Positions 9,020 through 57,559 are shown, counted from the first letter of the stretch. The stretch: DNA of 64,000 bases from Alphaproteobacteria bacterium (GCA_965243135.1 OZ251539.1:1248001-1312000), one strand, 5' to 3'. Notes: a model not told the origin generated them from the sequence alone. Made by a program: numbers and translations.

Positions 9020-10509
9020 TCAGGCGGTCTCGAACCCGACGACGTTGCGCTCCTCGCGGCTGAACTCCACCAGGTGGACCGAACGTCCGAGGCGGCGGTA
9101 CTTGTCCGCATATCCCTTCTCCCGCAGCTGCGCGAGCGCGGTCCCCTCCCGTCCGCGCTCCACCACCTTGAACTCGAACAGGTAGACGCGCCCGCCGGCG
9201 CGGATCGCCATGTCGGCGCGCCCCCGGCTGCCGCTTCCTCGGCGACCGGCTCGAGGCCCTCCATCAGGAAGCAGCTGGACGCTCGCGTAGTGGGCCTCGT
9301 ACACCGGGCTGCTCGCGTACCACTGGTGCGGGATGGCGGCGAAGACGCCGCGGAACAGGGTTTCGAGACGCTCGAAGTCGTTCGCCTCCAGCAGTTCGCC
9401 CAGCCGCAGGTTCTCCGTCTCCTCGCGAGCCTCGTCCGGGAGCAGTTCTTCCAGCAGGGCCTCGCCCAGGCTCTGGCGCACCTCGAGGTTCGGGTAGCCC
9501 AGCCGGTAGCGCCCGTCCTCCTCGCCGACGATGGTGAGGTAGCCGGTCTGGAACAGAAGCGCCTCGACCGACATCCTGTCCACGTCGAAGGTCGAGAGCA
9601 GGCTCTCGCTGCCGATCATGCCGTCCAGGCGGGGAGTGGGCAGGTTGCGGCGCGCCAGCGTCTCGACCAGGAAGGTCGGCGTGCCGCTCTGGAACCAGTA
9701 GTTGCCGAACTTCCGTTTGTCGAACAGCAGCAGGAGGCCGAACGGGTTGTAGACCTTGTCCGCGCCGAGCCAGTTGTAGCCGTTGTACCAGCGGCGGATT
9801 TCGTCCCGGTCCAGGCCCTCGATCTCCGGGGCGAAGACCGCGTCCAGCTCCGCTTCGGTGTAACCGCAGATATCGCCGTAGCGTTCGTCCAGCGTGATGT
9901 CGTTCAGGTTGTTCAGGCCCGAGAACAGGCCCGATAACTTGCTCACCCCCGTCAGGAAAACGAAACGGAGCTGCTCGTCGCAGTCCTTGATCATCGCGTA
10001 GAAGCCGCGCAGGAAGTCGCGGTTGGCCAGCGCCAGTTCCCGATCGCCGAGCGCGTCCAGGATCGGCTTGTCGTATTCGTCCACCAGCACGACCGCCCGC
10101 TGCCCGGTGCGCTCGTGCAGCGTCAGGCGCCGGAAACGGACCGCCGCCCCGGCGGGGCCCGGTTCGAGGCCGGCCAGCCGCTCCGTCTCCTCCAACTGGT
10201 CTTCCACGTTTCCCCGAACGAGGTCCGGGGAGTCGAAATTGCCCCCGCCGAAGCTGATCCGCACGACGGCGCGTCGACCAGTCCCACTTGCCGTGCACGG
10301 CGAGGCCCTGGAACAACTCCTCGCTTCCCTCGAACAGCTTCTGCAGCGTGTCCACCAGCAGGGTCTTGCCGAACCGGCGCGGACGCGACAGGAAATAGTA
10401 CTTGCCCCTCTCGACGAAGGCGGCGCACATGGTCCGTCTTGTCGACGTAGTAGCAGTCCATCCCCCGGATCTCCCGGAGGGAGGAAAAGCCGAGCATGCG
10501 CTTCGTCAT
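9020..10509 (-). pseudogene. AAA-ATPase-like + PD-(D/E)XK nuclease, array copy 1 (multiple frameshifts)
   Basis: Homologous to the other copies but spread over three frames (indels near 10416, 10267, 9275, 9236), plus several 6-nt in-frame deletions. Confidence 0.85.
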
Positions 10510-11076
10510 TCCAAGAGAGTAGGCCGCCGCACCGGAGCCGTCAAGGATGAGGCGGGTTGCGAAGCGAAGCGCCACGGCGATTCCCGCCAGGGCGGCGGAC
10601 CTTCGCGGGAGGCCTGGCGCGCAGTCGGCGGCGGACAGGGCGTCACGGCGCATCTCCCGCGTCGAGGCCGGCCCGTGGCGCGTTCCTTTCGCCGCAGGGG
10701 CGGCGTCCGGGCACGGCCAAAGGCGGCGTCCGCGAAAACGGCGGTTCCGAAAGTTCGTAGTTCGCCGCGCCCGGGGCAATGGCTCGCGTTGCGCGAGCGC
10801 TGCCGACGGGCGAGAGGCCGTCGTTCCGCAGGAATCTTCCCCGCCGAAACGAATTTTCTCGTCCTCTCGAGCCTTACCTCTCGGGGCCGGCTTCGGCATC
10901 GTCGAACGGTCGCCAGCCCGCGAAGCCTGCCGGGAACGGCGCGCGAGCGCCTGCAGGGAGACGCCGCCGGCCCCGAGTTCCCGGCGGCCTCCGGGGCGTC
11001 CCGTCAAGCCGCAGGCGCGCGAGGCGACGAACCGGCTGCCGAAATGTCCGAACAGGACCTCGTCCGGCTTCAGGTT

Positions 11077-12612
11077 TCAGGCGGTCTCGAAATCGAACCC
11101 GACGACGTTGCGCTCCTCGCGGCTGAACTCCACCCCGATCAGGTGGACCGAACGCCCGAGGTGGCGGTATTTGTCCGCGTAACCCTTCTCCCGCAGCTGC
11201 GCGAGCGCGGTCCCCTCTCGCCCGCGCTCCACCACCTTGAACTCGAACAGGTAGACGCGCCCGCCCGCGCGGATCGCCATGTCGGCGCGCCCCCGGCTGC
11301 CGCTGTCCTCGGCCACCGGCTCGAAGCCCTCCATCAGGAAGCAGCTGTGGATGACGCTCGCGTAGTGGGCCTCGTACTTCGCGACGGGGCTGGTCGCGTA
11401 CCACTGGTGCGGGATGGCGGCGAAGACGCCGCGGAACAGGGTCCCGAGGCGCTCGAAGTCGTTCGCTTCCAGCAGTTCGCCCAGCCGCAGGCGCTGCGTC
11501 TTCTTGCGGGCCTCGACCGGGAGCAGTTCTCCCAGCAGGGCCTCGCCCAGGCTCCGGCGCACCTCGAGGTTCGGGTAGTCCAGCCGGTAGCGCCCGTCCT
11601 CCTCGCCAGCGATGGTCAGGTAGCCGGTCTGGAACAGAAGCGCCTCGACCGAGATATTGTCCACGTCGAAGGTCGAGAGCAGGCTCTCGCTGCCGATCAT
11701 GCCGTCCAGGTCGGGAGTGGGCAGGTCGCGGCGCGCCAGCGTCTCGACCAGGAAGGTCGGCGTGCCGCTATGGAACCAGTAGTTGCCGAACTTGCGTTTG
11801 TCGAACAGCAGCAGGAGGCCGAACGGGTTGTAGATCCTCTCCGGTCCGAGCCAGTTGTAGCCGTTGTACCAGCGGCGGACCTCGTCCCGGTCCAGGCCCT
11901 CGAGTTCCGGGGCGAAGACCGCATCCAGTTCGTCGTCCGTGTAACCGCAGATATCGCCGTAGCGCTCGTCCAGCGTGATGTCGTTCAGGTTGTTCAGGCC
12001 CGAGAACAGGCCTGCCTTCGAGAACTTGCTCACCCCCGTCAGGAAAACGAAACGGAGATGCTCGTCGCAGTCCTTGACCGCCCCGTACAGGCTGCGCAGG
12101 AAGTCGCGGTTGGCCCGCGCCAGTTCCCGGTCGCCGAGCGCGTCCAGGATCGGCTTGTCGTATTCGTCGACCAGCACGACCGCCCGCTGCCCGGTGCGCT
12201 CGTGCAGGGCTTCGATCAATTCCCCGAAACGGTTCGATGCCTCGACGGGATCCGGTTCGAGGCCGGCGCGCCTCTCCGCCGCCGCCAGCTGCCTTTCCAC
12301 GGTTATCCGAACCCCGTCCGGGACGACGAAATTGCCCCTGCCGAAGCTGAGCCGCACGACCGGATGGCGCGCCGACCAGTCCCACCTGCCGTGCACGGAG
12401 AGGCCCCGGAACAACTCTTCGCTTCCCTCGAACAGCTTCTGCAGCGTGTCCACCAGGAGGGTCTTGCCGAACCGGCGCGGACGCGACAGGAAGTAGTACT
12501 TGCCCCTCTCGACGAGGCGGCGCACATGGTCCGTCTTGTCGACGTAGTAGCAGTTCATCCCCCGGATCTCCCGGAGGGAGGAAAAGCCGATCGGAAGCAT
12601 GCGTTTCGTCAT
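11077..12612 (-). CDS. AAA-ATPase-like (PF09820-type) + PD-(D/E)XK_9 nuclease, array copy 2
   Basis: MTKRMLPIG start; Walker [10 protein letters not shown]; Walker B LVDEYDKP; C-terminal GRADM...FEFK...ALAQL..KGYA. Confidence 0.9.
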   Translation of the reverse strand: MTKRMLPIGFSSLREIRGMNCYYVDKTDHVRRLVERGKYYFLSRPRRFGKTLLVDTLQKLFEGSEELFRGLSVHGRWDWSARHPVVRLSFGRGNFVVPDGVRITVERQLAAAERRAGLEPDPVEASNRFGELIEALHERTGQRAVVLVDEYDKPILDALGDRELARANRDFLRSLYGAVKDCDEHLRFVFLTGVSKFSKAGLFSGLNNLNDITLDERYGDICGYTDDELDAVFAPELEGLDRDEVRRWYNGYNWLGPERIYNPFGLLLLFDKRKFGNYWFHSGTPTFLVETLARRDLPTPDLDGMIGSESLLSTFDVDNISVEALLFQTGYLTIAGEEDGRYRLDYPNLEVRRSLGEALLGELLPVEARKKTQRLRLGELLEANDFERLGTLFRGVFAAIPHQWYATSPVAKYEAHYASVIHSCFLMEGFEPVAEDSGSRGRADMAIRAGGRVYLFEFKVVERGREGTALAQLREKGYADKYRHLGRSVHLIGVEFSREERNVVGFDFETA

Positions 12613-12618
12613 TCGAAA

Positions 12619-12647
12619 AGAGTAGGCCGCCGCGCCGGAACCGTCAA
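12619..12647 (-). promoter_or_regulatory. sigma70-like promoter, leaderless; an equivalent element precedes all 11 AAA-nuclease copies
   Basis: TTGACG-17 nt-TACTCT-6 nt-ATG with no Shine-Dalgarno; same spacing in every copy. Confidence 0.7.
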
Positions 12648-12749
12648 GAAGTCGGCGGCCGCGAGGCGCCGCGGCGATTCCCGCCAGGGCGGCGTTCTTT
12701 CCGAAGGCGGCTGTCGAAAGTCCGAACAGGACGTCGACGGCTCCCGGCT

Positions 12750-14282
12750 TCAGACGGTCTCGAACCTGAAATCCACGATATTGCGTTCTTCCCGGCCGAA
12801 CTCCACCCCGATCAGGTGAATCTGCATGCCCGGACGCCGGTACTTGTCCGCGTAACCGCGTTCTCGAATCTGCGCCAGCGCCCGGCCTTCCGGCTTCCCG
12901 TCCGCGACCTTGAACTCGAACAGGTAGACGCCGCCGTCGTACAGGACCGTCAGGCGGCCGCGCGCCGTGCTCTCCTCCGCGCGGACGTCCATCCCCGCCG
13001 CCGCGATGTGCGAGTAGAACACGCTCGCATAGTGGTCCTCGTAGCCCGCCATGCCCGTGTTCGCGTACCACTCGTTCGGGATGCTCGCCAGGAACGCCCG
13101 GAATCGCCGCTCAAGGCCCGCGAAGTCGTTCGTCCGCATCAGGCGGCGCAGGCTCTCCGCCGCGACCGTAGCGTCCGGCGCCATCGCCTCCAGCAGGAGT
13201 GCGTTCAGGCTGCGCTTCACCTCATGGTTCGGGTAGTCCAGCCGGTAGAGGGGCGCGTCCTCGTCCGGCTCTTCGCCGACGATGGTCAGGTAGCCGGTCT
13301 GGAACAGCAGCGCCTCGACGGGGATGCGGTCGATGTCGATGGCCGACAGCAGGTCGTCGTCCGCGAACATGCCCTCCAGGGCCGGCGCCGAGACCCGGCA
13401 CCGCGCCAGAAGGTCGACGAGGAAAGTCGGCGTGCCGCTCTGGAACCAGTACGGGCGGAATCTGCGCTTGTCGAACAGCAGCAGGATGTCGTGCGGATTG
13501 TAGACCCTTTCCGGTCCGAGCCAGTTGTAGCCGTTGTACCAGCGGCGGACCTCGTCCCGGTCCAGGCCGTCGAGTTCCGGGGCGAACACCGCGTCCAGTT
13601 CATCGTCGGTGTAGCCGCATATGGCGCCGTAGCGCTCGTCCAGCGTGATGTCGTTCAGGTTGTTCAGGCCCGAGAAAATGCCCGCCTGCGAGAACTTGCT
13701 CACCCCCGTCAGGAAAACGAAGCGGAGATGCTCGTCGCAGTCCTTGATGACCCCGTACAGGTCCCGCAGGAAGCTGCGGTTGGCCAGCGCCAGTTCCCGG
13801 TCGCCGAGCGCGTCCAGGATCGGCTTGTCGTACTCGTCCACCAGCACGACCGCCTGCTGTCCGGTGCGCTCGTACAGCGTCCGTATCAAGCGCTGGAAAC
13901 GGATCGCCGCCCCGGCGGTGCCCGGTTCGAGGCCGGCCTGTATCTCCGTCTCTTCCAGCTGCGCTTCCACGGTTTCCCGAACGCGGTCGGGGACGACGAA
14001 ATTGCGCCCGCCGAAGCTGAGCCGCACGACCGGGTGGCGCGCCGACCAGTCCCACCTGCCGTGCACGGAGAGGCCCCGGAACAGCTCCTCGCTTCCCTCG
14101 AACAGCTTCTGCAGCGTGTCCACCAGCAAGGTCTTGCCGAACCTGCGCGGACGCGACAGGAAGTAGTACTTGCCCCTCTCGACGAGGCGGCGCGCATGGT
14201 CCGTCTTGTCGACGTAGTAGCAGTTCATCCCCCGGATCTCCCGGAGGGAGGAAAAGCCGATCGGAAGCATGCGTTGCGTCAT
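12750..14282 (-). CDS. AAA-ATPase-like + PD-(D/E)XK, array copy 3 (divergent C-terminal half)
   Basis: N-half nearly identical to other copies; sequence diverges from about YNPHDILL; nuclease motif reads GRLTV...FEFK. Confidence 0.88.
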   Translation of the reverse strand: MTQRMLPIGFSSLREIRGMNCYYVDKTDHARRLVERGKYYFLSRPRRFGKTLLVDTLQKLFEGSEELFRGLSVHGRWDWSARHPVVRLSFGGRNFVVPDRVRETVEAQLEETEIQAGLEPGTAGAAIRFQRLIRTLYERTGQQAVVLVDEYDKPILDALGDRELALANRSFLRDLYGVIKDCDEHLRFVFLTGVSKFSQAGIFSGLNNLNDITLDERYGAICGYTDDELDAVFAPELDGLDRDEVRRWYNGYNWLGPERVYNPHDILLLFDKRRFRPYWFQSGTPTFLVDLLARCRVSAPALEGMFADDDLLSAIDIDRIPVEALLFQTGYLTIVGEEPDEDAPLYRLDYPNHEVKRSLNALLLEAMAPDATVAAESLRRLMRTNDFAGLERRFRAFLASIPNEWYANTGMAGYEDHYASVFYSHIAAAGMDVRAEESTARGRLTVLYDGGVYLFEFKVADGKPEGRALAQIRERGYADKYRRPGMQIHLIGVEFGREERNIVDFRFETV

Positions 14283-15016
14283 TCGAAGAGGGTAGGCCGC
14301 CGCGCCGGAGCCGTCAAGAAGTCGGCGGTGGCAGGCCTGTCCCGCGCTGCGTCGCACGACAAGCAGCTGGCAGTTTCCACGGCGGTACAGGCGGCCGGCG
14401 AAGAGATGACGCTCTTGCCCGAACGCTTCGTGACTGGCACGCCTCCGCCGTCGGCGCAGGCGGCTCTCCGTCCCCAGTCGACGCCGACAGGCCATGCTTT
14501 GCCCCACGCCCGCGCTCGCTGAATCCTGTACCGGGCGGCGCGAACTACCCGCAGGGCGTCCGGCCACTGGGCACGGATTCTCCGCAGGCGTCCGAGGCGC
14601 AGGGGTTGCAAGGTTGGTCGATCCTCTTCGTCCACCGAGGACGAAGTTCCCGAATGTTGCAGTGAAACGGCGCTCTCCAGCTCTCCGCACTCCGGCCGAA
14701 TCAGGGGAGCGTCAGCCCGGAAAAATGGTGCTGAAATGACACGGGGGATGGCTGTCTGGGTCGGGCCTCGGCATCGTCGAACAATGCCGGCATGGCGGCT
14801 AAAACGATTTCCCGGCCCGTAAAGCCGTCGGGGGACGCCGCCCCGGGCCCGAGTTCCCGGCCGCCTCCTCGGCGGGGCGTCCCGTCAAGCCGCCGGCGTG
14901 CAAGGCGACGAACCGGCTCCCGCCCTCGACGAAGCGCTGGCCGACCCGAATCTGCGACAGCCTTTCGCGGAGTTGGCTGCCGAACTGTCCGAACGGGACG
15001 TCGCACTCGCCCGGCT

Positions 15017-16540
15017 TCAGGCGGCCTCGCAATCGAACCCGACGACGTTGCGCTCCTCGCGGCTGAACTCCACCCCGATCAGGTGGACCGAACGCCCGAG
15101 ATGGCGGTACTTGTCCGCATAGCCCTTCTCCCGCAACTGCGCGAGCGCGACCCCCTCCCGCCCGCGCTCCACCACCTTGAACTCGAACAGGTAGACGCGC
15201 CCGCCGGCGCGGATCGCCATGTCGGCGCGCCCCCGGCTGCCGCTGTCCTCGGCCACCGGCTCGAAGCCCTCCATCAGGAAGCAACTGTGGATGACGCTCG
15301 CGTAGTGGGCCTCGTACACCGGGCTGTTCATGTACCACTGGTGCGGGATGGCGGCGAAAATGCCGCGGAACAGGGTTTCGAGACGCTTGAAGTCGTTCGC
15401 CTCCAGCAATTCGCCCAGCCGCAGGTTCTCCGTTTCCTCGCGGGCCTCGGCCGGGAGCAGTTCTTCCAGCAGGGCCTCGCCCAGGCTCTGGCGCACCTCG
15501 AGGTTCGGGTAGTCCAGTCGGTAGCGCCCGTCCTCCTCGCCCGCGATGGTGAGGTAGCCGGTCTGGAACAGAAGCGCCTGGACCGACATCCTGTCCACGT
15601 CGAAGGCCGAGAGCAGGCTCTCGCTGCCGATCATGCCGTCCAGGCGGGGAGTGGGCAGGTTGCGGCGCGCCAGCGTTTCGATCAGGAAGGTCGGCGTGCC
15701 GCTCTCGAACCAGTAGTTGCCGAACCTGCGCTCGGCGAACAGCAGCAGGAGGCCGAACGGATTGTAGAGCTTCTCCGGCCCGCACCAGTTGTAGCCGTTG
15801 TACCAGCGGCGGACCTTCTCCCGGTCCAGGCCCTCCAGTTCCGGGGCGAACACCGCGTCCAGCTCCGCGTCCGTGCAGCCGCAGATGTCCGAGAACTCCG
15901 GCGCCAGCGTGATGTCGCGCAGGTTGTTCAGGCCAGAGAACAGGCCTGCCAACTTGCTCACCCCCGTCAGGAAAACGAAACGGAGATGCCTGTCGCAGTC
16001 CTTGATAACCCCGTACAGGTCGCGCAGGAAGCCGCGGTTGGCCAGCGCCAGTTCCCGGTCGCCGAGCGCGTCCAGGATCGGTTTGTCGTATTCGTCCACC
16101 AGCACGACCGCCTGCTGTCCGGTGCGCTCGTGCAGCGTCCGTATCATGCGCTGGAAACGGATCGCCGCCCCGGCGGTGCCCGGTTCGAGGCCAGCCTGTA
16201 TCTCCGTCTCTTCCAGCTGCGCTTCCACGGTTTCCCGAACGCGGTCGGGGACGACGAAATTGCGCCCGCCGAAGCTGAGCCGCACGACCGGGTGGCGCGC
16301 CGACCAGTCCCACCTGCCGTGCACGGCGAGGCCCCGGAACAGCTCCTCGCTTCCCTCGAACAGCTCCTGCAGCGTGTCCACCAGGAGGGTCTTGCCGAAC
16401 CGGCGCGGACGCGACAAGAAATAGTAATCGCCCCCTTCGACGAGGCGGCGCACATGGTCCGTCTTGTCGACGTAGTAGCAGTTCCTCGTCCGGATTTTCC
16501 AGAGGGAGGTCATGCCGATCGGAAGCATGCGTTTCGCCAT
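15017..16540 (-). CDS. AAA-ATPase-like + PD-(D/E)XK nuclease, array copy 4
   Basis: 507-aa ORF with the same Walker A/B and nuclease motifs. Confidence 0.9.
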   Translation of the reverse strand: MAKRMLPIGMTSLWKIRTRNCYYVDKTDHVRRLVEGGDYYFLSRPRRFGKTLLVDTLQELFEGSEELFRGLAVHGRWDWSARHPVVRLSFGGRNFVVPDRVRETVEAQLEETEIQAGLEPGTAGAAIRFQRMIRTLHERTGQQAVVLVDEYDKPILDALGDRELALANRGFLRDLYGVIKDCDRHLRFVFLTGVSKLAGLFSGLNNLRDITLAPEFSDICGCTDAELDAVFAPELEGLDREKVRRWYNGYNWCGPEKLYNPFGLLLLFAERRFGNYWFESGTPTFLIETLARRNLPTPRLDGMIGSESLLSAFDVDRMSVQALLFQTGYLTIAGEEDGRYRLDYPNLEVRQSLGEALLEELLPAEAREETENLRLGELLEANDFKRLETLFRGIFAAIPHQWYMNSPVYEAHYASVIHSCFLMEGFEPVAEDSGSRGRADMAIRAGGRVYLFEFKVVERGREGVALAQLREKGYADKYRHLGRSVHLIGVEFSREERNVVGFDCEAA

Positions 16541-16600
16541 TCCAAGAGAGTAGGCCGCCGCGCCGGAGCCGTCAAGGAAAGCGTCATTAACATGCGTTCG

Positions 16601-19344: not shown

Positions 19345-19348
19345 GGCG

Positions 19349-28325: not shown

Positions 28326-28534
28326 AAATGCCGTACGCCAACGGCCGCTACGACGGCCGCTGCGCGACGCTCTTCGCAGCCGCAGTACGCTGGCCCCGCG
28401 GACGCTTTCCCGCGACTTTTCAGGCGCTTACCGGTCGAGTGCCGCACGAGCGACGAGCGCTGCCGCCTTTGACGAAGCGCAGGCCGAACCCGCGGCGGCG
28501 TTCTTTCGCGGAGGCGGCCGTGACGGGAAGCCGT

Positions 28535-30068: not shown

Positions 30069-30417
30069 CCGGAGAGGGTAAGCCGCCGCGCCGGAGTCGT
30101 CAAGAAGTCGGCAGTTTCCGCGGCGGTACGGGCGGCCGGCGGGGGAAAGCGCGGAGGCGAGCGAACCTGTCGCTCCGCGGAAGTCCTGCCCCGCTAAGGC
30201 GAGCGCGTTCGACACGCTCAACGCACGGCTTGGAGGCCGTTGCGCGACGCTCTTCGCAGCCGCAGTACGCCGGCCCGGACGCCTTCCCGCGACTTTTCAG
30301 GCGCTTACCGATCGAGCGCCGCGCGAGCGACGAGCGCTGCCGCCTTCGACGGAGCGCAGGCCGGACCCGCGTCGCGGACGGCGTTCTTTCGCGGAGGCGG
30401 CCGTGACGGGAAGCCGT

Positions 30418-34299: not shown

Positions 34300-34956
34300 C
34301 CGAAGAGGGTAGGCCGCCATGCCGGAGCCGTCAAGAAGTCGGCGGTCGCGAGGCACGGCGGATCTTTTCTCCGGGTAAAAGCCTCTCTCCCTGTCAATTC
34401 CGAGGCGCAACGCAGGCAGTCGGCAATCTCCGTCGCGAGGCAGTACGGGCTTCGCGGGAGTCAAGCGTCCCGCCCTTCGTCCCCCCCGAAGGCCGCCGCG
34501 CGACGCTCTTCGCCGCGGCAACGCGTTCCCGGAATCTCCACGCGGGTCCCGAAAGGTGCACTACGCACGCTTACCGGTCGGGCGAGCAGCGAGGACAGGA
34601 CGTCACATTGCCCTTCCGTTCCTGAGCGGGTTCTCCCATGTCGGCGGTCGACCGAAGACGCGCTCCGGCGGCCGCGACAGCGCTCCGGGGCCGCCGTTCC
34701 GCAGGAATCTTCTCCGCGCGAAATGAATTTTCTCGCCCTCTCAAGCCTTGCCTCCCGGCTCCGGCATCGTCGAACGGGGCCGGCCCGCAAAGCCTGCCGG
34801 CGCGCGAGCGCCCGCAGGGAGACGCCGCCGGCCACGAGGCGGCCTCCTCGCCGGGCGGCCCGTCAAGCCGCGCGACGAACCGGCGGGACCGGCTGCCGCC
34901 GCAGGCCGAACTCGCGGCGGCGTTCTTTTGCGGAGGCGGCCGTGACGGGAAGCCGT

Positions 34957-36474
34957 TCAGGCGGGCTCGCAGTCGAACCCGACGACGTTGCGCTCCTCGC
35001 GGCTGAACTCCACCCCGATCAGGTGGACCGAACGACGGCGGTACTTGTCCGCATAGCCCTTCTCCCGCAGTTGCGCGAGCGCGGTCCCCTCCCGCCCGCG
35101 CTCCACCACCTTGAACTCGAACAGGTAGACGCGCCCGCCGGCGCGGACCGCCATGTCGGCGCGCCCCCGGCTGCCGCTGTCCTCGGCGACCGGCTCAAGG
35201 CCCTCCATCAGGAAGCAGCTGTGGATGACGCTCGCGTAGTGGGCCTCGTACACCGGGCTGTTCAAGTACCACTGGTGCGGGATGGCGGCGAAGACGCCGC
35301 GGAACAGGGTCCCGAGGCGCTCGAAGTCGTTCGCTTCCAGCAATTCGCCCAGCCGCAGGCGCTCCGTCTTCTTGCGCGCCGCGTTCGGGAGCAGTTCTTC
35401 CAGCAGGGCCTCGCCCAGGCTCCGGCGCACCTCGAGGTTCGGGTAGTCCAGCCTGTAGCGCCCGTCCTCCTCGCCCGCGATGGTGAGGTAGCCGGTCTGG
35501 AACAGAAGCGCCTCGACCGAGATATTGTCCACGTCGAAGGTCGAGAGCAGGCTCTCGCTGCCGATCATGCCGTCCAGGTCGGGAGTGGGCAGGTCGCGGC
35601 GCGTCAGCGTCTCGACCAGGAAGGTCGGCGTGCCGCTCTGGAACCAGTACGGGCGGAACACGCGCCGCCGAAACAGCAGCAGGAGGCCGAACGGGTTGTA
35701 GACCTTTTCCGGTCCGAGCCAGTTGTAGCCGTTGTACCAGCGGCGGACCTCGTCCCGGTCCAGACCCTCGAGTTCCGGGGCGAAGACCGCGTCCAGTTCG
35801 TCGTCCGTGCAGCCGCAGATGTCCGAGAACTCCGGCTCCAGCGTGACGTCGATCAGGTTGTTCAGGCCCGAGAACAGGCCCGCCAACTTGCTCACCCCCG
35901 TCAGGAAAACGAAACGGAGCTGCTCGTCGCAGTCCTTGATCATCGCGTAGAAGCCGCGCAGGAAGTCGCGGTTGGCCAGCGCCAGTTCCCGGTCGCCGAG
36001 CGCGTCCAGAATCGGCTTGTCGTACTCGTCCACCAGAACGACCGTTCGCTGCCCGGTGCGCTCGTGCAGCGTCCTTATCAGGCGCCGGAAACGGACCGAC
36101 GCCTCGGCGGGGCCCGGTTCGAGGCCGGCCAGCCGCTCCGTTTCCTCCAACTGGTCTTCCACGTTGCTCCGAATGAAGTCCGGGGAGTCGAAATTGCCCC
36201 CGCCGAAGCTGATCCGCACGACAGGATGGCGCGCCGACCAGTCCCACTTGCCGTGTATGGCGAGGCCCCGGAACAACTCCTCGCTTCCCTCGAACAGCTT
36301 CTGCAGCGTGTCCACCAGCAGCGTCTTGCCGAACCGGCGCGGACGCGACAGAAAATAATATTGACCACCCTCGATAAGGCGGCGGACATGGTCCGTCTTG
36401 TCGACGTAGTAGCAGTCCATCCCCCGGATTTTCCGGAGGGAGGTCATGCCGATCGGAAGCATGCGTTTTGCCAT
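34957..36474 (-). CDS. AAA-ATPase-like + PD-(D/E)XK nuclease, array copy 8
   Basis: Intact ORF from MAKRMLPIGMTS. Confidence 0.9.
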   Translation of the reverse strand: MAKRMLPIGMTSLRKIRGMDCYYVDKTDHVRRLIEGGQYYFLSRPRRFGKTLLVDTLQKLFEGSEELFRGLAIHGKWDWSARHPVVRISFGGGNFDSPDFIRSNVEDQLEETERLAGLEPGPAEASVRFRRLIRTLHERTGQRTVVLVDEYDKPILDALGDRELALANRDFLRGFYAMIKDCDEQLRFVFLTGVSKLAGLFSGLNNLIDVTLEPEFSDICGCTDDELDAVFAPELEGLDRDEVRRWYNGYNWLGPEKVYNPFGLLLLFRRRVFRPYWFQSGTPTFLVETLTRRDLPTPDLDGMIGSESLLSTFDVDNISVEALLFQTGYLTIAGEEDGRYRLDYPNLEVRRSLGEALLEELLPNAARKKTERLRLGELLEANDFERLGTLFRGVFAAIPHQWYLNSPVYEAHYASVIHSCFLMEGLEPVAEDSGSRGRADMAVRAGGRVYLFEFKVVERGREGTALAQLREKGYADKYRRRSVHLIGVEFSREERNVVGFDCEPA

Positions 36475-37177
36475 CCAAAGAGGGTAGGCCGCCGCGCCGG
36501 AGCCGTCAAGAAGTCGGCGGTCGCGAGGCACGGCGGACCTTTTCTCCGGTTAAAAGCTCTCTCCCTGTCAATTCTGAAGCGTAACGCAGGCAGTCGGCAA
36601 TCTCCGTCGCGAGGCAGTACGGGCTTCGCGGCGAGTCAAGCGTCCCGCCCTCGTCCCCCCGAAGGCCGCCGCGCGATCAGAGATCCCCGAGCAAGCCCCC
36701 TGTCGCCGCGCCCAAGCAAGAAGTCCGCCGCGACGCCGTACAGGCAGCGCCGGGCGTCTCTCCGGCACAGCCCCTGCAAGCGGCATGGCGAGGACACCAC
36801 CCGGAAAGCGAGGACAGGACATCGCATTGCCCTTTCGTTCCTGAGCGGGTTCTCCCATGTCGGCGGTCGACCGAAGACGCGCTCCGGCGGTCGCGACAGC
36901 GCTCCGGGGCCGCCGTTCCGCAGGAATCTTCTCCGCGCGAAATCAATTTTCTCGCCCTCTCAAGCCTTGCCTTCCGGCCCCGGCATCGTCGAACGGGCGC
37001 CGGTCCGCAAAGCCTGCCGACGCGCGAGCGCCTGCAAGGAGACGCCGCCGGCCACGAGGCGGCCTCCTCGGCCGGGCGGACCGTCAAGCCACGCGGCGAA
37101 CCGGCAGAACCGGCTGCCGCCGCAGGCCGAACCCGCGGCGGCGTTCTTTCGCGGAGGCGGCCGTGACGGAAAGCCGT

Positions 37178-38713
37178 TCAGGCGGTCTCGCAATCGAAGC
37201 CGACGACGTTGCGCTCCTCGCGGCTGAACTCCACCCCGATCAGGTGGACCGAACGTCCGAGACGGCGGTACTTGTCCGCATAGCCCTTCTCCCGCAGCTG
37301 CGCGAGCGCGGTCCCCTCCCGCCCGCGCTCCACCACCTTGAACTCGAACAGGTAGACGCGCCCGCCGGCGCGGATCGCCATGTCGGCGCGCCCCCGGCTG
37401 CCGCTGTCCTCGGCAATCGGCTCAAGGCCCTCCATCAGGAAGCAGCTGTGGATGACGCTCGCGTAGTGGGCCTCGTACTTCGCGACGGGGCTGTTCATGT
37501 ACCACTGGTGCGGGATGGCGGCGAAAATGCCGCGGAACAGGGTTTCGAGACGCTTGAAGTCGTTCGCCTCCAGCAATTCGCCCAGCCGCAGGTTCTCCGT
37601 CTCCTCGCGGGCCTCGTCCGGGAGCAATTCTCCCAGCAGGGCCTCGCCCAGGCTCCGGCGCACCTCGAGGTTCGGATAGTCCAGCCTGTAACGCCCGTCC
37701 TCCTCGCCGGCGATGGTGAGGTAGCCGGTCTGGAACAGAAGCGCCTCGACCGAGATCCTGTCCACGTCGAAGGTCGAGAGCAGGCTCTCGCTGCCGATCA
37801 TGCCGTCCAGGCGTGGAGTGGGCAGGTTGCGGCGCGCCAGCGTCTCGACCAGGAAGGTCGGCGTGCCGCTCTGGAACCAGTACGGGCGGAACTCGCGCCG
37901 CCGAAACAGCAGCAGGAGGCCGAACGGGTTGTAGACCCTCTCCGGCCCGCGCCAGTTGTAGCCGTTGTACCAGCACCGGACCTCGTCCCGGTCCAGGCCC
38001 TCGAGTTCCGGGGCGAACACCGCGTCCAGTTCCGCATCCGTATAGCCGCAAATGTCCGAGAACTCCGGCTCCAGCGTGACGTCGATCAGGTTGTTCAGGC
38101 CCGAGAACAGGCCCGCCTGCGAGAACTTGCTCACCCCCGTCAGAAAAACGAAACGGAGATGCCTGTCGCAGTCCTTGATCGCCCCGTACAGGCTGCGCAG
38201 GAAGTCGCGGTTGGCCCGCGCCAGTTCCCGGTCGCCGAGCGCGTCCAGGATCGGCTTGTCGTACTCGTCCACCAGAACGACCGCCCGCTGCCCGGTGCGC
38301 TCGTGCAAGGCCTCGATCAATTCCCCGAAACGGTTCGACGCCTCGACGGGATCCGGTTCGAGGCCGGCGCGCCTCTCCGCCGCCGCCAGCTGCCTTTCCA
38401 CGGTTATCCGAACCCCGTCCGGCGCACGGAAATTGCCCCTGCCGAAACTGAGCCGCACGACCGGATGGCGCGTCGACCAGTCCCACTTGCCGTGCACGGC
38501 GAGGCCCCGGAACAACTCCTCGCTTCCCTCGAACAGCTCCTGCAGCGTGTCCACCATGAGGGTCTTGCCGAACCGGCGCGGACGCGACAGGAAATAGTAC
38601 TTGCCCCTCTCGACGAGGCGGCGCACATGGTCCGTCTTGTCGACGTAGTAGCAGTCCATCCCCCGGATCTCCCGGAGGGAGGAAAAGCCGATCGGAAGCA
38701 TGCGTTTCGTCAT
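37178..38713 (-). CDS. AAA-ATPase-like + PD-(D/E)XK nuclease, array copy 9
   Basis: Intact ORF, same motifs. Confidence 0.9.
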   Translation of the reverse strand: MTKRMLPIGFSSLREIRGMDCYYVDKTDHVRRLVERGKYYFLSRPRRFGKTLMVDTLQELFEGSEELFRGLAVHGKWDWSTRHPVVRLSFGRGNFRAPDGVRITVERQLAAAERRAGLEPDPVEASNRFGELIEALHERTGQRAVVLVDEYDKPILDALGDRELARANRDFLRSLYGAIKDCDRHLRFVFLTGVSKFSQAGLFSGLNNLIDVTLEPEFSDICGYTDAELDAVFAPELEGLDRDEVRCWYNGYNWRGPERVYNPFGLLLLFRRREFRPYWFQSGTPTFLVETLARRNLPTPRLDGMIGSESLLSTFDVDRISVEALLFQTGYLTIAGEEDGRYRLDYPNLEVRRSLGEALLGELLPDEAREETENLRLGELLEANDFKRLETLFRGIFAAIPHQWYMNSPVAKYEAHYASVIHSCFLMEGLEPIAEDSGSRGRADMAIRAGGRVYLFEFKVVERGREGTALAQLREKGYADKYRRLGRSVHLIGVEFSREERNVVGFDCETA

Positions 38714-39430
38714 CCGAAGAGAGTAGGCCGCCGCGCCGGAGCCGTCAAGAAGTCGGCGGTCGCGAAGCACGGCGGATCTTTCTCCGGGCTCCCTGTCAGT
38801 TCTGAAGCGCAACGCAGGCAGTCGGCAATCTCCGTCGCGAGGCAGTACGGGCTTCGCGGCGAGTCAATCGTCCCGCTCCTCGTCCCCCCAAAGGCCGCCG
38901 CGCGACGCTCTTCTCAGCGGCAACGCGTTCCCGGAATCTCCACCCCGAAAGGCGCACTACGCACGCTTACCGGTCGGGCAAGCGCGATCCACCAAAGTCC
39001 GTCTCGCGATCAGAGATCCCCGAGCAAGCCCCCTGTCGCCGCGCCCAGGCAAGAAGAGTCCGGCGCGACGCCGTACAGGCAGCGCCGGGCGTCTCTCCGG
39101 CACAGCCCCTGCAAGCGGCATGACGAGGACACCACCCGAAAGCGAGGACAGGACATCGCATTGCCCTTCCGTTCCTGAGCGGGTTCGTCGGCGGTCGACC
39201 GAAGACGCGCTCCGGCGGCCGCGACAGCGCTCCGGGACCGCCGTTCCGCAGGAATCTTCTCCGCGCGAAATTAATTTTCTCGCTCTCTCAAGCCTTGCCT
39301 CCCGGCATCGTCGAACGGGCGCCGGCCCGCAAAGCCTGCCGGGAACGGCGTGCGAGCGCCTGCAAGGAGACGCCGCCGGCCACGAGGCGGCCTCCTCGGC
39401 CGGGCGGCCCGTCAAGCCGCGCGACGAACC
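38714..39430. repeat. Inter-copy spacer nearly identical to 41012-41730; related to spacers at 32.0-32.7, 34.3-34.9 and 36.5-37.1 kb
   Basis: Line-by-line comparison shows only a few differences over ~700 bp. Confidence 0.85.
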
Positions 39431-39475
39431 GGCGGAACCGGCTGCCGAAATGTCCGAACGGGACCTCGTCCGGCT

Positions 39476-41011
39476 TCAGGCGGCCTCGCAATCGAAGCCG
39501 ACGACGTTGCGCTCCTCGCGGCTGAACTCCACCCCGATCAGGTGGACCGAACGTCCGAGATGGCGGTACTTGTCCGCGTAGCCCTTCTCCCGCAACTGCG
39601 CGAGCGCAGTCCCCTCCCGCCCGCGCTCCACCACCTTGAACTCGAACAGGTAGACGCGCCCGCCGACGCGGATCGCCATGTCGGCGCGCCCCCGGCTGCC
39701 GCTGTCCTCGGCGACCGGCTCAAGGCCCTCCATCAGGAAGCAACTGTGGATGACGCTCGCGTAGTGGGCCTCGTACTTCGCGACGGGGCTGTTCATGTAC
39801 CACTGGTGCGGGATGGCGGCGAAGACGCCGCGGAACAGGGTTTCGAGACGCTTGAAGTCGTTCGCCTCCAGCAGTTCGCCCAGCCGCAGGTTCTCCGTCT
39901 CCTCGCGGGCCTCGGCCGGGAGCAGTTCTTCCAGCAGGGCCTCGCCCAGGCTCTGGCGCACCTCGAGGTTCGGGTAGTCCAGCCTGTAGCGCCCGTCCTC
40001 CTCGCCGGCGATGGTGAGGTAGCCGGTCTGGAACAGAAGCGCCTGGACCGACATCCTGTCCACGTCGAAGGCCGAGAGCAGGCTCTCGCTGCCGATCATG
40101 CCGTCCAGGCGGGGAGTGGGCAGGTCGCGGCGCGCCAGCGTCTCGACCAGGAAGGTCGGCGTGCCGCTCTCGAACCAGTAGTTGCCGAACCTGCGCTCGG
40201 CGAACAGCAGCAGGAGGCCGAACGGGTTGTAGAGCCTCTCCGGCCCGCGCCAGTTGTAGCCGTTGTACCAGCGCCGGATCTCGTCCCGGTCCAGGCCCTC
40301 GAGTTCCGGGGCGAAGACCGCGTCCAGTTCCGCGTCCGTGCAGCCGCAGATGTCCGAGAACTCCGGCGCCAGCGTGATGTCGCGCAGGTTGTTCAGGCCC
40401 GAGAACAGGCCAGCCTTCGAGAACTTGCTCACCCCCGTCAGGAAAACGAAACGGAGATGCCTGTCGCTGTCCTTGATCATCGCGTAGAAGCCGCGCAGGA
40501 AGTCGCGGTTGGCCCGCGCCAGTTCCCGGTCGCCGAGCGCGTCCAGGATCGGCTTGTCGTATTCGTCCACCAGAACGACCGCCCGCCGCCCGGTGCGCTC
40601 GTGCAGCGTCCGTATCAGGCGCCGGAAACGGATCGACGCCTCGGCAGGCCCCGGTTCGAGGCCCGCCAGCCGCTCCGTCTCCTCCAGCTGGTCTTCCACA
40701 TCTTTCCGAACGAAGTCCGGAGTGTCGAAATTGCCCCCGCCGAAGCTGATCCGCACGACCGGGTGACGCGTCGACCAGTCCCACTTGCCGTGCACGGCGA
40801 GGCCCCGGAACAGCTCCTCGCTTCCCTCGAACAACTCCTGCAGCGTGTCCACCAGCAGGGTTTTGCCGAACCGGCGCGGACGCGACAGGAAGTAGTACTT
40901 GCCCCTCTCGACGAGGCGGCGGGCATGGTCCGTCTTGTCGACGTAGTAGCAATCCATCCCCCGGATCTCCCGGAGGGAGGAAAAGCCGATCGGAAGCATG
41001 CGTTTCGCCAT
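39476..41011 (-). CDS. AAA-ATPase-like + PD-(D/E)XK nuclease, array copy 10
   Basis: Intact ORF, same motifs. Confidence 0.9.
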   Translation of the reverse strand: MAKRMLPIGFSSLREIRGMDCYYVDKTDHARRLVERGKYYFLSRPRRFGKTLLVDTLQELFEGSEELFRGLAVHGKWDWSTRHPVVRISFGGGNFDTPDFVRKDVEDQLEETERLAGLEPGPAEASIRFRRLIRTLHERTGRRAVVLVDEYDKPILDALGDRELARANRDFLRGFYAMIKDSDRHLRFVFLTGVSKFSKAGLFSGLNNLRDITLAPEFSDICGCTDAELDAVFAPELEGLDRDEIRRWYNGYNWRGPERLYNPFGLLLLFAERRFGNYWFESGTPTFLVETLARRDLPTPRLDGMIGSESLLSAFDVDRMSVQALLFQTGYLTIAGEEDGRYRLDYPNLEVRQSLGEALLEELLPAEAREETENLRLGELLEANDFKRLETLFRGVFAAIPHQWYMNSPVAKYEAHYASVIHSCFLMEGLEPVAEDSGSRGRADMAIRVGGRVYLFEFKVVERGREGTALAQLREKGYADKYRHLGRSVHLIGVEFSREERNVVGFDCEAA

Positions 41012-41798
41012 CGTAAGAGAGTAGGCCGCCGCGCCGGAGCCGTCAAGAAGTCGGCGGTCGCGAGGCACGGCGGATCTTTCTCCGGGCTCCCTGTCAGTTC
41101 TGAAGCGCAACGCAGGCAGTCGGCAATCTCCGTCGCGAGGCAGTACGGGCTTCGCGGCGAGTCAATCGTCCCGCTCCTCGTCCCCCCAAAGGCCGCCGCG
41201 CGACGCTCTTCTCAGCGGCAACGCGTTCCCGGAATCTCCACCCCGAAAGGCGCACTACGCACGCTTACCGGTCGGGCAAGCGCGATCCACCAAAGTCCGT
41301 CTCGCGATCAGAGATCCCCGAGCAAGCCCCCTGTCGCCGCGCCCAGGCAAGAAGAGTCCGGCGCGACGCCGTACAGGCAGCGCCGGGCGTCTCTCCGGCA
41401 CAGCCCCTGCAAGCGGCATGACGAGGACACCCACCCGAAAGCGAGGACAGGACATCGCATTGCCCTTCCGTTCCTGAGCGGGTTCGTCGGCGGTCGACCG
41501 AAGACGCGCTCCGGCGGCCGCGACAGCGCTCCGGGGCCGCCGTTCCGCAGGAATCTTCTCCGCGCGAAATTAATTTTCTCGCTCTCTCAAGCCTTGCCTC
41601 CCGGCATCGTCGAACGGGCGCCGGCCCGCAAAGCCTGCCGGGAACGGCGTGCGAGCGCCTGCAAGGAGACGCCGCCGGCCACGAGGCGGCCTCCTCGGCC
41701 GGGCGGCCCGTCAAGCCGCGCGACGAACCGGTGGCTGCCGCCGCAGGCCGAACCGCGGGCGGCGTTCTTTCGCGGAGGCGGCCGTGACAGAAAGCCGT

Positions 41799-43334
41799 TC
41801 AGGCGGTCTCGCAATCGAAACCGACGACGTTGCGCTCCTCGCGGCTGAACTCCACCCCGATCAGGTGGACCGAACGTCCGAGACGGCGGTACTTGTCCGC
41901 GTAGCCCTTCTCCCGCAGCTGCGCGAGCGCGACCCCCTCCCGCCCGCGCTCCACCACCTTGAACTCGAACAGGTAGACGCGCCCGCCGGCGCGGATCGCC
42001 ATGTCGGCGCGCCCCCGGCTGCCGCTGTCCTCGGCCACCGGCTCGACGCCCTCCATCAGGAAGCAGCTGTGGATGACGCTCGCGTAGTGGGCCTCGTACT
42101 TCGCAACCGGGCTGTTCATGTACCACTGGTGCGGGATGGCGGCGAAAACGCCGCGGAACAGGGTTTCGAGACGCCTGAAGTCGTTCGCCGCCAGCAATTC
42201 GCCCAGCCGCAGGTTCTCCGTCTCCTCGCGGGCCTCGACCGGGAGCAGTTCTTCCAGCAGGGCCTCGCCCAGGCTCTGGCGCACCTCGAGGTTCGGGTAG
42301 TCCAGCCGGTAGCGCCCGTCCTCCTCGCCGGCGATGGTGAGGTAGCCGGTCTGGAACAGAAGCGCCTGGACCGACATCCTGTCCACGTCGAAGGTCGAGA
42401 GCAGGCTCTCGCTGCCGATCATGCCGTCCAGGCGGGGAGTGGGCAGGTCGCGGCGCGCCAGCGTCTCGACCAGGAAGGTCGGCGTGCCGCTCTCGAACCA
42501 GTAGTTGCCGAACCTGCGCTCGGCGAACAGCAGCAGCAGGCCGAACGGGTTGTAGAGCCTCTCCGGCCCGCACCAGTTGTAGCCGTTGTACCAGCGCCGG
42601 ATTTCGTCCCGGTTCAGGCCCTCGAGTTCCGGGGCGAAGACCGTGTCCAGTTCCGCGTCCGTGCAGCCGCAGATGTCCGAGAACTCCGGCGCCAGCGTGA
42701 TGTCGCGCAGGTTGTTCAGGCCCGAGAACAGGCCTGCCTTCGAGAACTTGCTCACCCCCGTCAGGAAGACGAAGCGGAGATGCCTGTCGCAGTCCTTGAT
42801 AACCCCGTACAGGTCGCGCAGGAAGCCGCGGTTGGCCAGCGCCAGTTCCCGGTCGCCGAGCGCGTCCAGGATCGGCTTGTCGTATTCGTCCACCAGCACG
42901 ACCGCCCGCTGCCCGGTGCGCTCGTGCAGTTCGGAGATCAGATGGTGCAGGCGGTCGGAGGCGTCCGGGTAGCCGCATTGGACGCCGGCGCGCTTTTCGG
43001 CGGCGTCGAGCTGCATCATCGCGTTCCTGTGCAGCCGGTCGGGGACGACGAAATTGCGCCCGCCGAAACTGAGCCGCACGACCGGGTAGCGCACTGACCA
43101 GTCCCACTTGCCGTGCACGGCGAGGCCCCGGAACAGCTCCTCGCTTCCTTCGAACAGCTCTTGCAGCGTGTCCACCAGGAGGGTCTTGCCGAACCGGCGC
43201 GGACGCGAGAGGAAATAGTATTTGCCCCTCTCGACGAGGCGGCGCACATGGTCCGTCTTGTCGATGTAGTAGCAGTCCATCCCCCGGATCTCCCGGAGGG
43301 AGGAAAAGCCGATCGGAAGCATGCGTTTCGTCAT
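41799..43334 (-). CDS. AAA-ATPase-like + PD-(D/E)XK nuclease, array copy 11
   Basis: Intact ORF, same motifs. Confidence 0.9.
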   Translation of the reverse strand: MTKRMLPIGFSSLREIRGMDCYYIDKTDHVRRLVERGKYYFLSRPRRFGKTLLVDTLQELFEGSEELFRGLAVHGKWDWSVRYPVVRLSFGGRNFVVPDRLHRNAMMQLDAAEKRAGVQCGYPDASDRLHHLISELHERTGQRAVVLVDEYDKPILDALGDRELALANRGFLRDLYGVIKDCDRHLRFVFLTGVSKFSKAGLFSGLNNLRDITLAPEFSDICGCTDAELDTVFAPELEGLNRDEIRRWYNGYNWCGPERLYNPFGLLLLFAERRFGNYWFESGTPTFLVETLARRDLPTPRLDGMIGSESLLSTFDVDRMSVQALLFQTGYLTIAGEEDGRYRLDYPNLEVRQSLGEALLEELLPVEAREETENLRLGELLAANDFRRLETLFRGVFAAIPHQWYMNSPVAKYEAHYASVIHSCFLMEGVEPVAEDSGSRGRADMAIRAGGRVYLFEFKVVERGREGVALAQLREKGYADKYRRLGRSVHLIGVEFSREERNVVGFDCETA

Positions 43335-57533: not shown

Positions 57534-57559
57534 GAAACAGTCCTCCAAGTGCAAAATAT

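Follow-up and report, generated by a model that had tools for sequence, protein, structure and literature searches.

A stretch of 64,000 nucleotides from the genome of an Alphaproteobacteria bacterium (GCA_965243135.1, OZ251539.1:1248001-1312000; the whole stretch is called the window below) raises a simple question: why does it hold eleven copies of one gene, all in the same orientation, that encodes an ATPase fused to a nuclease of family DUF1703? The array of eleven is real and far beyond chance. Our preferred answer, to which as a whole we give about an even chance, is that it belongs to a lineage-specific, genome-wide expansion of DUF1703, and that the copies form a recombining repertoire of ATP-gated sensor-effector nucleases acting against foreign DNA.

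The eleven genes (c1 to c11 in the order of their coordinates, Table 1) are all located on the minus strand and fall into two clusters, four genes at 9020-16540 and seven at 28535-43334. Nine of them are intact and encode proteins of 505-511 amino acids; c1 and c5 are frameshifted. Sixteen candidate open reading frames (ORFs) were given to Pfam and 13 matched. All nine intact genes carry both PF09820 (AAA-ATPase_like; E 2.9e-54 to 4.9e-60, 184-203 bits against a cut-off of 26.1) and PF08011 (PDDEXK_9; E 5.6e-14 to 1.7e-16, 52-60 bits against a gathering cut-off of 25.5); c1 and c5 match in two pieces. As confirmed by repeat search, the eleven copies are in register. Running from c1 to c11, the start-to-start spacings are 2069, 1673, 2267, 13518, 1883, 2349, 2184, 2227, 2298 and 2323 nt, that is, 1.67-2.35 kb from one neighbour to the next within a cluster and 13.5 kb from the first cluster to the second. 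The G+C content across the two arrays is 0.63-0.69, the true start of the copies is the conserved M-(T/A)-K-R-M-L-P-I-G, and the pairwise nucleotide identity among the eleven is 77-95%. The lesions of c1 are +1 near 10418, -5 at 10259-10272, -5 near 9278 and -1 near 9236, and it also has in-frame deletions; c5 is open apart from its single break, with 81 amino acids before it and 427 after it. The coordinates and the repeat search bear out the eleven minus-strand paralogues in two clusters that a first-pass annotation of this DNA had described. Its division into nine intact and two frameshifted copies agrees with the Pfam frames and the comparison of insertions and deletions, and its assignment to the PF09820 plus PF08011 family is confirmed by Pfam, with both domains above the cut-offs.

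Repeats of this kind are hard to assemble, and the array, or the copy number of the whole genome, might be inflated or chimeric. No listed contig of the public DNA runs spans the array, and one contig of run X4 joins position 32325 to 41369, skipping 9043 nt, which equals four units. This joint is either a shorter array in the sample or a path through the homologous spacers. Exactly 31 letters are common to both of its sides, which we take to be the word length of the contig builder, and the joint may thus be a path of the assembly graph. Against an artefact, the eleven copies diverge from one another at 5-23% of positions, no two of them combine segments in the same way, unique pieces of the spacers are found without difference in contigs of four public DNA runs from two studies, and the genome is one 6.1-Mb contig. 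Because the copies are distinguishable at their level of identity, it is unlikely that the assembly collapsed or multiplied identical repeats, and we consider an assembly artefact very improbable.

How far does the family extend beyond the window? The source genome is a single contig of 6,103,318 bases, and the window holds only 11 of its ∼160 family loci. Searching it by tblastn with c9 gave 245 high-scoring segment pairs (HSPs), which were merged into 160 loci; PF09820 matched 152 times (150 of 198 candidates scored). Ninety-eight of the 160 loci are full-length and in one piece, and 97 of these were verified as open frames of 505-524 amino acids; the one remaining was not placed by our script, and all statistics on the 97 intact copies exclude it. 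About 60 loci are broken or only fragments. Altogether, the loci are grouped in 79 clusters that cover 223,949 bases, or 3.67% of the genome: 45 singletons, 19 pairs, 4 triples, 6 clusters of four, 2 of five, and one each of seven (the second cluster of the window), nine and fifteen. The two largest arrays lie outside the window, at 1905893-1952695 (15 loci) and 2880355-2905513 (9 loci). In the latter, six copies have a common 5-nt deletion, and it is therefore largely an array of pseudogenes. The median amino acid identity of the copies is 71%.

The number of copies varies strongly among the 30 relatives that were searched. Four congeners have 0 (in a genome 93% complete), 1, ∼5 (split) and ∼22 copies, respectively; one genome of the same order has 9, and none of the 14 genomes from other genera of the same taxonomic family has a DUF1703 match. 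Outside this group, at least 623 relatives were confirmed (626 pattern matches) in a collection of species-representative genomes, the closest among the matches listed being 52-64% identical. By the titles of their records, the best 80 of these at least 623 relatives belong to Latescibacterota (20), Gammaproteobacteria (19), Vicinamibacteria (19), Spirochaetia (6) and ten other class-level groups, and their taxa span at least 8 phyla. Some of these taxa, such as Latescibacterota and Palauibacter, are presumably linked to sponge microbiomes; a literature listing reports such taxa from sponges. Five genomes of these relatives were checked, and each holds 8-26 full-length PF09820 matches.

Trees were built from 51 of the 97 intact copies and 81 foreign proteins. 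With the whole protein, 49 of the 51 sampled copies form one clade (Shimodaira-Hasegawa-like approximate likelihood ratio test, SH-aLRT, 99). The pair at genome positions 1565062-1568752 is a separate DUF1703 lineage: its two members are 43-44% identical to c9 and 95% identical to each other, have a different upstream region, and group with copies from Pseudomonadales and Binatia records. The tree of the N-terminal 267 residues, comprising the ATPase core and the variable cassette HV1 described below, places 48 copies in one clade (support 100). In the tree of the C-terminal half, two large groups, which correspond to two types of C-terminal module, each form a clade (24 rows, support 100; 25 rows, support 98). 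The module types may be old lineages within this genome, or separate imports whose cores were later homogenised. As judged from the sequences, the expansion of the family is lineage-specific and took place mostly within this genome.

The copies are mosaics: one ATPase core, the HV1 cassette and three main types of C-terminal module occur in reassorted combinations. Compared in 60-nt intervals, pairs of copies from the window are 95-100% identical over most of the gene and only 47-73% identical at nt 300-420, with lesser drops near nt 660-720, 780-840 and 1140-1200. HV1, a hypervariable segment of 48 residues, is delimited by this kind of drop, and its flanks are 90-100% identical between copies. 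c3 is a chimera. Its N-terminal half is 84-100% identical to that of c4 in each interval (mostly 87-100%), whereas the C-terminal halves are only 57-83% identical, that of c3 being of a different module type. For the nine intact copies of the window, the pairwise homoplasy index (PHI) statistic is 0.397, against 0.522 ± 0.006 once the sites are permuted (0 of 1000 permutations as low); for a 50-copy clade it is 0.560 against 0.698 (0 of 300 as low).

To describe this reassortment across the 97 intact copies, segments were clustered at 85% identity. The ATPase core (residues 1-87 and 136-267) is essentially of one type, shared by 93-95 copies, HV1 occurs in 13 types, and the C-terminal half in three main types of 50, 33 and 12 copies. 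The type of HV1 is uncoupled from all other segments (adjusted mutual information 0.06-0.09), whereas coupling is tight (0.95-1.0) among the segments within the C-terminal half, and 43 distinct segment combinations were found. The first-pass annotation had proposed an expandable repertoire; as a diversified, recombining set it is upheld by the PHI statistic and by the uncoupling of the segments. The synonymous divergence of the core is 0.186 between C-terminal types and 0.155 and 0.199 within them, compared to 0.418 between and 0.127 and 0.187 within for the C-terminal half itself. The core is equally divergent between and within the types, which shows that exchange between copies, and not purifying selection alone, has homogenised it across the family. 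HV1 has the same proportions of synonymous and nonsynonymous differences (pS 0.33, pN 0.27) in every comparison. No HV1 allele common with the foreign proteins was seen; the median best foreign identity is 0.49, against 0.57 among pairs from this genome.

Exchange is also suggested by the damaged copies. c1 and c5 lack the same five bases just upstream of HV1, at 10259-10272 in c1 and at 29810-29823 in c5. A pattern search for this site through the whole genome found 143 places, 119 with the intact 13-nt spacing, 20 with a spacing of 8 nt, and 4 with other spacings and unrelated letters between the anchors; 19 of the 20 sites with the 8-nt spacing are in family loci. Four of these 19 deletion loci (c5 and those at 2.897, 3.651 and 3.967 Mb) have no other break in their frame, before or after the deletion, and the others are further damaged. 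The nearest intact relatives of the four are 87%, 73%, 89% and 70% identical to c9, respectively, and the deletion sits on both main types of backbone. The simplest account is one null allele that spread by gene conversion within the homogenised core, although the site could also be a mutational hot spot. The 19 loci could serve as a store of silent donor copies.

The proteins retain what an active enzyme would need. In the 97 intact copies, the Walker A motif has G-K throughout, followed by T in 71 and S in 26; SRPRRFGK is invariant and LVDEYDKP nearly so, the D of Walker B being present in 97 copies and the E in 95. Motifs I-III of the PD-(D/E)XK nuclease are kept as well, with E435 in 97, D444 in 91, E457 in 97 and K459 in 95 copies. 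The pairwise ratio of nonsynonymous to synonymous substitution (dN/dS) is ∼0.45-0.6 overall and 0.18-0.19 around the two Walker motifs; it rises to 0.68-0.74 over residues 81-140, with 0.7 in HV1, and reaches 1.08 at residues 361-380. The open frames and the catalytic residues are evidently under selection, and the proteins kept functional.

A structure of c9 was modelled with AlphaFold2 from 57 sequences, the nine intact copies of the window and 48 relatives from other genomes; its mean predicted local distance difference test score (pLDDT) is 89 and its predicted template modelling score (pTM) 0.88. Foldseek ranked archaeal Orc1/Cdc6 proteins bound to DNA first (2v1u and 2qby), followed by CED-4, Apaf-1 and Avs3. 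In VIA-align, the best scores for residues 3-356 were Z 15.6 and 15.4 to the archaeal AAA+ ATPases 2fna and 2qen (279-281 residues, root-mean-square deviation 3.8-3.9). The plant TIR-type nucleotide-binding leucine-rich-repeat receptor (NLR) WRR4A, CED-4, NRC4, Apaf-1 and Avs3 gave Z 11.7-13.3, and Orc proteins, BrxC and TnsC gave Z 10-11.4. For residues 3-450, the best fold matches after the two archaeal PF01637-type ATPases are STAND proteins (signal transduction ATPases with numerous domains); their scores are below those of 2fna and 2qen and similar to those of the Orc proteins. Residues 302-510 match the PD-(D/E)XK domains of the Wolbachia proteins CidB and CinB (Z 10-11). The predicted fold is thus that of an Orc1/Cdc6- and STAND-like nucleoside triphosphatase (NTPase), with nucleotide-binding domain, helical lid and winged-helix-like region, followed by a C-terminal PD-(D/E)XK nuclease; the architecture of AAA+ domains 1 and 2, helical region and nuclease fits the model. 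The profile search and structure prediction that the first-pass annotation had proposed returned the two Pfam domains and a predicted ATPase-nuclease fold.

In the c9 model, HV1 forms a loop and two helices (99-114 and 124-139) between the strand 84-88 and the Walker B strand 143-148. In Orc1/Cdc6 and DnaA, the initiator-specific motif touches DNA, and HV1 would occupy the place of this motif if the order of secondary structure elements is taken as a guide.

Might the proteins be exported effectors that act on host or neighbouring cells and are diversified because their targets are? The CidB and CinB nucleases that the model resembles are factors of cytoplasmic incompatibility, ankyrin-repeat and sulfatase genes are among the foreign neighbours of the family, and an excerpt of a study on Cardinium predicts signal peptides in 10 of 25 DUF1703 paralogues and proposes secreted nucleases (PMC6387759). 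In the genome studied here, however, all the proteins start with a conserved, charged M-x-K/R-R-M-L-P-I-G, and the first strand of the model begins at residue 4, so that by inspection (no predictor was used) a signal peptide would not fit. At the 70 foreign loci surveyed, no gene of a secretion system recurs as a neighbour, and an ATP-gated, Orc1/STAND-like switch would suit an intracellular sensor better. Export seems quite improbable to us.

The extent of the repeated unit was determined by anchoring the 97 intact copies at their start codons and counting the majority base at each position. Between -40 and the ATG, 0.8-0.9 of the copies carry the majority base; this fraction is 0.6 at -50 and has sunk to background (∼0.38-0.46) beyond ∼-55. 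Past the stop codon it is 0.5-0.6 for ∼50 nt and then falls to background. The upstream consensus reads TTGACG, 17 nt, TAC(C/T)CT, 6 nt, ATG, and the upstream stretch of c9 is repeated ∼82 times in the genome. This element looks like a sigma-70-type promoter owned by nearly every copy, from which transcripts would begin at the ATG or right beside it; between the putative promoter and the ATG there is no purine-rich motif for ribosome binding. Among the public runs listed as containing 36400-41100, none is of RNA. Dispersed copies that are megabases apart and 94-96% identical have a common flank of only 36-54 nt upstream and 1-57 nt downstream, and in subfamilies with other C-terminal modules homology reaches ∼100 nt upstream.

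Within the c6-c10 cluster, the noncoding spacers are homologous too. They are 87-96% identical to each other, which gives a duplication unit of ∼2.2-2.3 kb. The middle of the spacers is found at only 5-8 places genome-wide, and of the 153 HSPs it gives, 137 are no more than 1 kb away from a locus of the family. The homology of the spacers, together with the rarity of their middle part, indicates that this cluster grew by tandem duplication of the unit. The same counts led us to reject the spacers as an independent repeat. Minus-strand ORFs in the spacers (124-152 amino acids, rich in Arg, Pro and Gly) were rejected as genes, as the spacers differ from each other by insertions and deletions that are not multiples of three.

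So sharply bounded a unit could also be a selfish gene, a self-propagating segment of ∼1.65 kb (upstream element, ORF and short tail) that is mobile or addictive and brings no gain to the host. The family is scattered over the 79 clusters with their 45 single loci, the homology of dispersed copies extends only from ∼-50 to ∼+45 around the ORF, and the proportion of broken loci fits a pattern of birth and death. The spread of the nearest listed relatives over at least 8 phyla and the 8-26 copies in all five genomes checked point the same way, as do the lack of a conserved foreign neighbour and the presence of transposases or integrases among the foreign neighbours (6 of 134). One singleton, L085, sits at a synteny break, its flanks mapping to different places in all three congeners compared. 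In addition, a 17-nt inverted repeat, 82% complementary, runs from the upstream element to the 3' tail in two of the three copies examined.

Nevertheless, this repeat is GC-rich with a 9-nt core and is absent from the third copy, and its 5' arm, ∼18 nt short of the edge of homology, falls within the putative promoter. Recent transposition should leave near-identical copies, yet the best non-overlapping pair is 97.5% identical, most pairs are 85-95%, and dispersed pairs at most 95.7%. No transposase, integrase or reverse transcriptase domain is present, as Pfam finds only PF09820 and PF08011 in the copies. The sharp edges would equally result from gene conversion limited to the gene body. Open frames and catalytic residues have been maintained across the 97 intact copies, and dN/dS at the motifs is far below 1, which argues against a gene without use. 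The family is also rare on plasmids (65 of 72,556 records), and in a phage collection of 50,697 records it was found only in 29 unannotated metagenomic 'Bacteriophage sp.' fragments. On balance, we regard a selfish gene as unlikely.

The genes around the array are listed in Table 1. Two clusters of DUF1703 genes flank a type III restriction-modification (R-M) pair, and at higher coordinates lie a GmrSD_N gene beside a RiboL-PSP HEPN gene and an MmeI-like ORF, all as the first-pass annotation had described and as the Pfam scan confirmed. The MmeI-like ORF may be a type IIG enzyme: its MmeI_Mtase match is below the Pfam cut-off, and N6_Mtase passes the whole-protein cut-off without a single significant stretch. 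The window has two transposases. Three further ORFs attracted attention. The one of 1363 amino acids at 53487-57578 has only an N-terminal HTH_3 match, the remainder being without a Pfam family; its neighbour of 679 amino acids at 51267-53306 has only a faint TPR match; and the one of 493 amino acids at 1954-3435 has no Pfam family and a G+C content of 0.53, against 0.65-0.69 around it.

Table 1. Coordinates of the DUF1703 genes, their parts and the neighbouring genes in the window
Feature	Position	Strand	Description
c1	9020-10509	-	DUF1703 pseudogene; Pfam matches split over two frames; four frame-breaking lesions
c2	11077-12612	-	intact, 511 aa
c3	12750-14282	-	intact, 510 aa, chimera
c4	15017-16540	-	intact, 507 aa
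c5	28535-30068	-	one frame-breaking lesion, a 5-nt deletion at 29810-29823
c6	30418-31953	-	intact, 511 aa
c7	32767-34299	-	intact, 510 aa
c8	34957-36474	-	intact, 505 aa
c9	37178-38713	-	intact, 511 aa; reference for searches and structure model
c10	39476-41011	-	intact, 511 aa
c11	41799-43334	-	intact, 511 aa
HV1 cassette of c9	38309-38452	-	residues 88-135 (48 residues); identity drop between copies
Upstream element of c9	38720-38748	-	TTGACG, 17 nt, TACTCT; ends 6 nt before ATG; conservation in 97 copies
Tandem units c6-c10	31954-41798	-	five homologous noncoding spacers of 654-813 nt; alignment
Type III mod	16794-19706		PF01555; between the two clusters
Type III res	19349-22216		PF04851; between the two clusters
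593-aa ORF	44933-46714		DruA-like N-terminal part (PF14236, E 2.9e-24), DDE_Tnp_1_assoc and DDE_Tnp_1
GmrSD_N (DUF262) gene	47503-48606		followed by the HEPN gene; G+C 0.55-0.58
RiboL-PSP HEPN gene	48652-49062		G+C 0.55-0.58
MmeI-like ORF	59760-62759		999 aa; weak N6_Mtase and MmeI_Mtase matches

Neighbours were also surveyed in other genomes, using the 134 nearest ORFs at 70 of 80 loci. Twelve of them are further DUF1703 genes, 6 transposases or integrases, 6 toxin-antitoxin-like, 2 DNA methylases and 3 AAA_14/DUF4143 genes; 36 are without family, and the rest are metabolic, transport or structural genes. No conserved partner gene was found at the 70 loci. AAA_14/DUF4143, which adjoins DUF1703 at 3 of the 70 loci, is another multi-copy ATPase family without known function.

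DUF1703 itself has been described before. According to the available excerpts, it was defined by Knizewski et al. (2007), including the deviant Walker A motif RPRRFGK[ST] and the Walker B motif DEYD (PMC1913061), and was catalogued by Steczkiewicz et al. (2012; PMC3424549). The copies of the window have both Pfam domains, the Walker A and B motifs, all nuclease motifs and the four-part architecture of this family. Siozios et al. (2019) described expansion accompanied by recombination in Cardinium cCpun, whose 25 copies, in the part of that paper available to us, ranked among the largest sets, only 9.8% of species having 10 or more (PMC6387759). Thus, as far as that excerpt goes, paralogue expansion and recombination of DUF1703 were already known, both genomes having multiple copies with intragenic recombination among paralogues, and the present genome is an extreme case. 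With 97 intact copies among ∼160 loci, it has about four times the Cardinium number in intact copies, and the copies are young and similar (median amino acid identity 71%, compared to a mean of 39% there). The division into core, 48-residue cassette and three modules, the upstream element and the frameshift allele at 19 loci are features of this genome that the excerpt of PMC6387759 does not contain.

The closest structural relatives, archaeal Orc1/Cdc6 and PF01637-type ATPases (2fna, 2qen, 2v1u, 2qby and 1w5s), have the same arrangement of nucleotide-binding domain, lid and winged helix, and the helices inserted in DUF1703 between strand 2 and the strand of Walker B would lie at the site of the initiator-specific motif of Orc1/Cdc6. 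However, they are only 12-14% identical in sequence to the DUF1703 copy; they are without a nuclease, occur in one or a few copies per genome, have a role in replication and lack a hypervariable cassette. STAND and NLR proteins (Avs3, 8dgc; Avs5, 9jap; CED-4; plant NLR resistosomes) are predicted to be similar in NTPase fold, with Z 10.6-13.3. They share the fusion to an effector nuclease and the large, clustered, recombining family with birth and death. Different from them, the DUF1703 proteins have no repeat-type sensor domain, carry the nuclease at the C-terminus, and match no Avs model of PADLOC. The comparison with NLR clusters made in the first-pass annotation therefore stands as an analogy of form, in STAND-like predicted fold (Z 11.7-13.3) and recombining repertoire; its argument from a defence island does not.

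Among bacterial defence systems, a review table, seen in excerpt, lists PF09820 among the domains of RdrA (PMC10952713). The RdrA ring of RADAR resembles the c9 model weakly (Foldseek rank 36, probability 0.72) and BrxC of BREX resembles it with Z 11.3-11.4, but no PADLOC model of RADAR or BREX matches c9 or c3. The partners RdrB deaminase, PglZ and BrxB are absent from the scanned ORFs of the window and from the 134 foreign neighbours, where no search was aimed at them.

Variation of cassettes by gene conversion is known from pilE/pilS, vlsE and the hsdS shufflons. The present family is alike in that a variable segment bounded by conserved sequence is exchanged among paralogues, including defective ones. 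It differs in that its products are predicted cytoplasmic enzymes, not surface antigens, and in that nearly all copies have an upstream element and an open frame of their own, which argues for a repertoire whose members are expressed side by side, not for a single expression site fed by silent donors. Compared to insertion sequences, the DUF1703 copies are without a transposase or integrase domain and without near-identical recent copies, and they show a single pair of 17-nt arms in only some of the copies examined.

We can now return to the reading that the copies form a repertoire of nucleases against foreign DNA. The family evolves through tandem duplication and birth and death, and gene conversion between its copies is frequent. 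Each gene is a self-contained unit with a putative promoter in the ∼50 nt upstream, little or no leader and a protein of ∼510 amino acids, in which the ATPase core is kept alike in nearly all copies, with the HV1 hairpin and the C-terminal half of linker and nuclease reassorted freely. Each variant would be an ATP-gated nuclease; HV1 and the C-terminal module would set which nucleic acid or other trigger is recognised, and nucleotide-dependent assembly would then license cleavage. In this way, the genome would maintain a germline-encoded set of sensor-effectors directed at foreign DNA. The ATP-gated nuclease activity, the choice of target by the variable parts and the role against foreign nucleic acid are what we infer. 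A bolder version, namely a germline immune-receptor repertoire of ∼100 ATP-gated nucleases in which the hairpin confers specificity, new specificities come from gene conversion that recombines the 13 HV1 types and three module types on the one core, and broken copies, such as the 19 loci with the 5-nt deletion, act as donors, a prokaryotic counterpart of plant NLR clusters based on an Orc1/Cdc6-like switch, is possible but rather doubtful in our view.

Several observations weigh against this reading. R-M markers (PF01555, PF02384 and PF04851, the last of which also includes helicases that have nothing to do with defence) show no enrichment near the family: 5 of 38 lie within 5 kb of a locus, against 18% expected from the share of the genome covered by the loci with 5-kb margins (P(X>=5) = 0.84). 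Only ∼14 of the 134 foreign neighbours are toxin-antitoxin-like, DNA methylases or AAA_14/DUF4143, and most of the rest are metabolic or transport genes. No family of PADLOC-DB v2.0.0 matches c9 or c3 at E <= 0.01, and no NCBIfam model matches the copies. A literature search, in which sources were available in part, found no tested function for any DUF1703 protein. At the level of the protein, sequence search found no related solved structure (two matches at E 0.57-0.67 are expected by chance), and neither Pfam nor the c9 model reveals a separate repeat-type sensor domain, the 510 amino acids being filled by ATPase, linker and nuclease. The equation of HV1 with the initiator-specific motif is drawn from the order of elements, not from a residue-level superposition. 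The putative promoter was recognised from conservation only, and a scan with the consensus called 0 sites in 28000-44500, because the -10 hexamer TAC(C/T)CT fits at only 3 of 6 positions. Finally, the tree of the C-terminal half does not resolve the union of the two large module groups.

Some of these points bear on the neighbourhood of the array. The argument of the first-pass annotation that the array lies in a defence region fails, as the family forms 79 clusters genome-wide, R-M markers are unenriched, neighbours elsewhere are mostly metabolic and PADLOC gives no match. The R-M genes of the window are not part of the DUF1703 repertoire, and a defence role of the family is one that we infer. 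The case is a warning about guilt by association: the R-M genes of the window are persuasive locally and meaningless genome-wide.

DUF1703 is a very large family, with at least 623 close relatives of one subfamily in species-representative genomes. The genome described here is a natural experiment within it, in which the sites of ATPase and nuclease stay fixed, a hairpin of 48 residues is hypervariable and the C-terminal half comes in three main types. If the copies are selfish, they would represent a mobile gene without any known transposition machinery. If instead they are a germline repertoire, this would be the first function for a large orphan family and a new kind of diversified innate immunity in bacteria.

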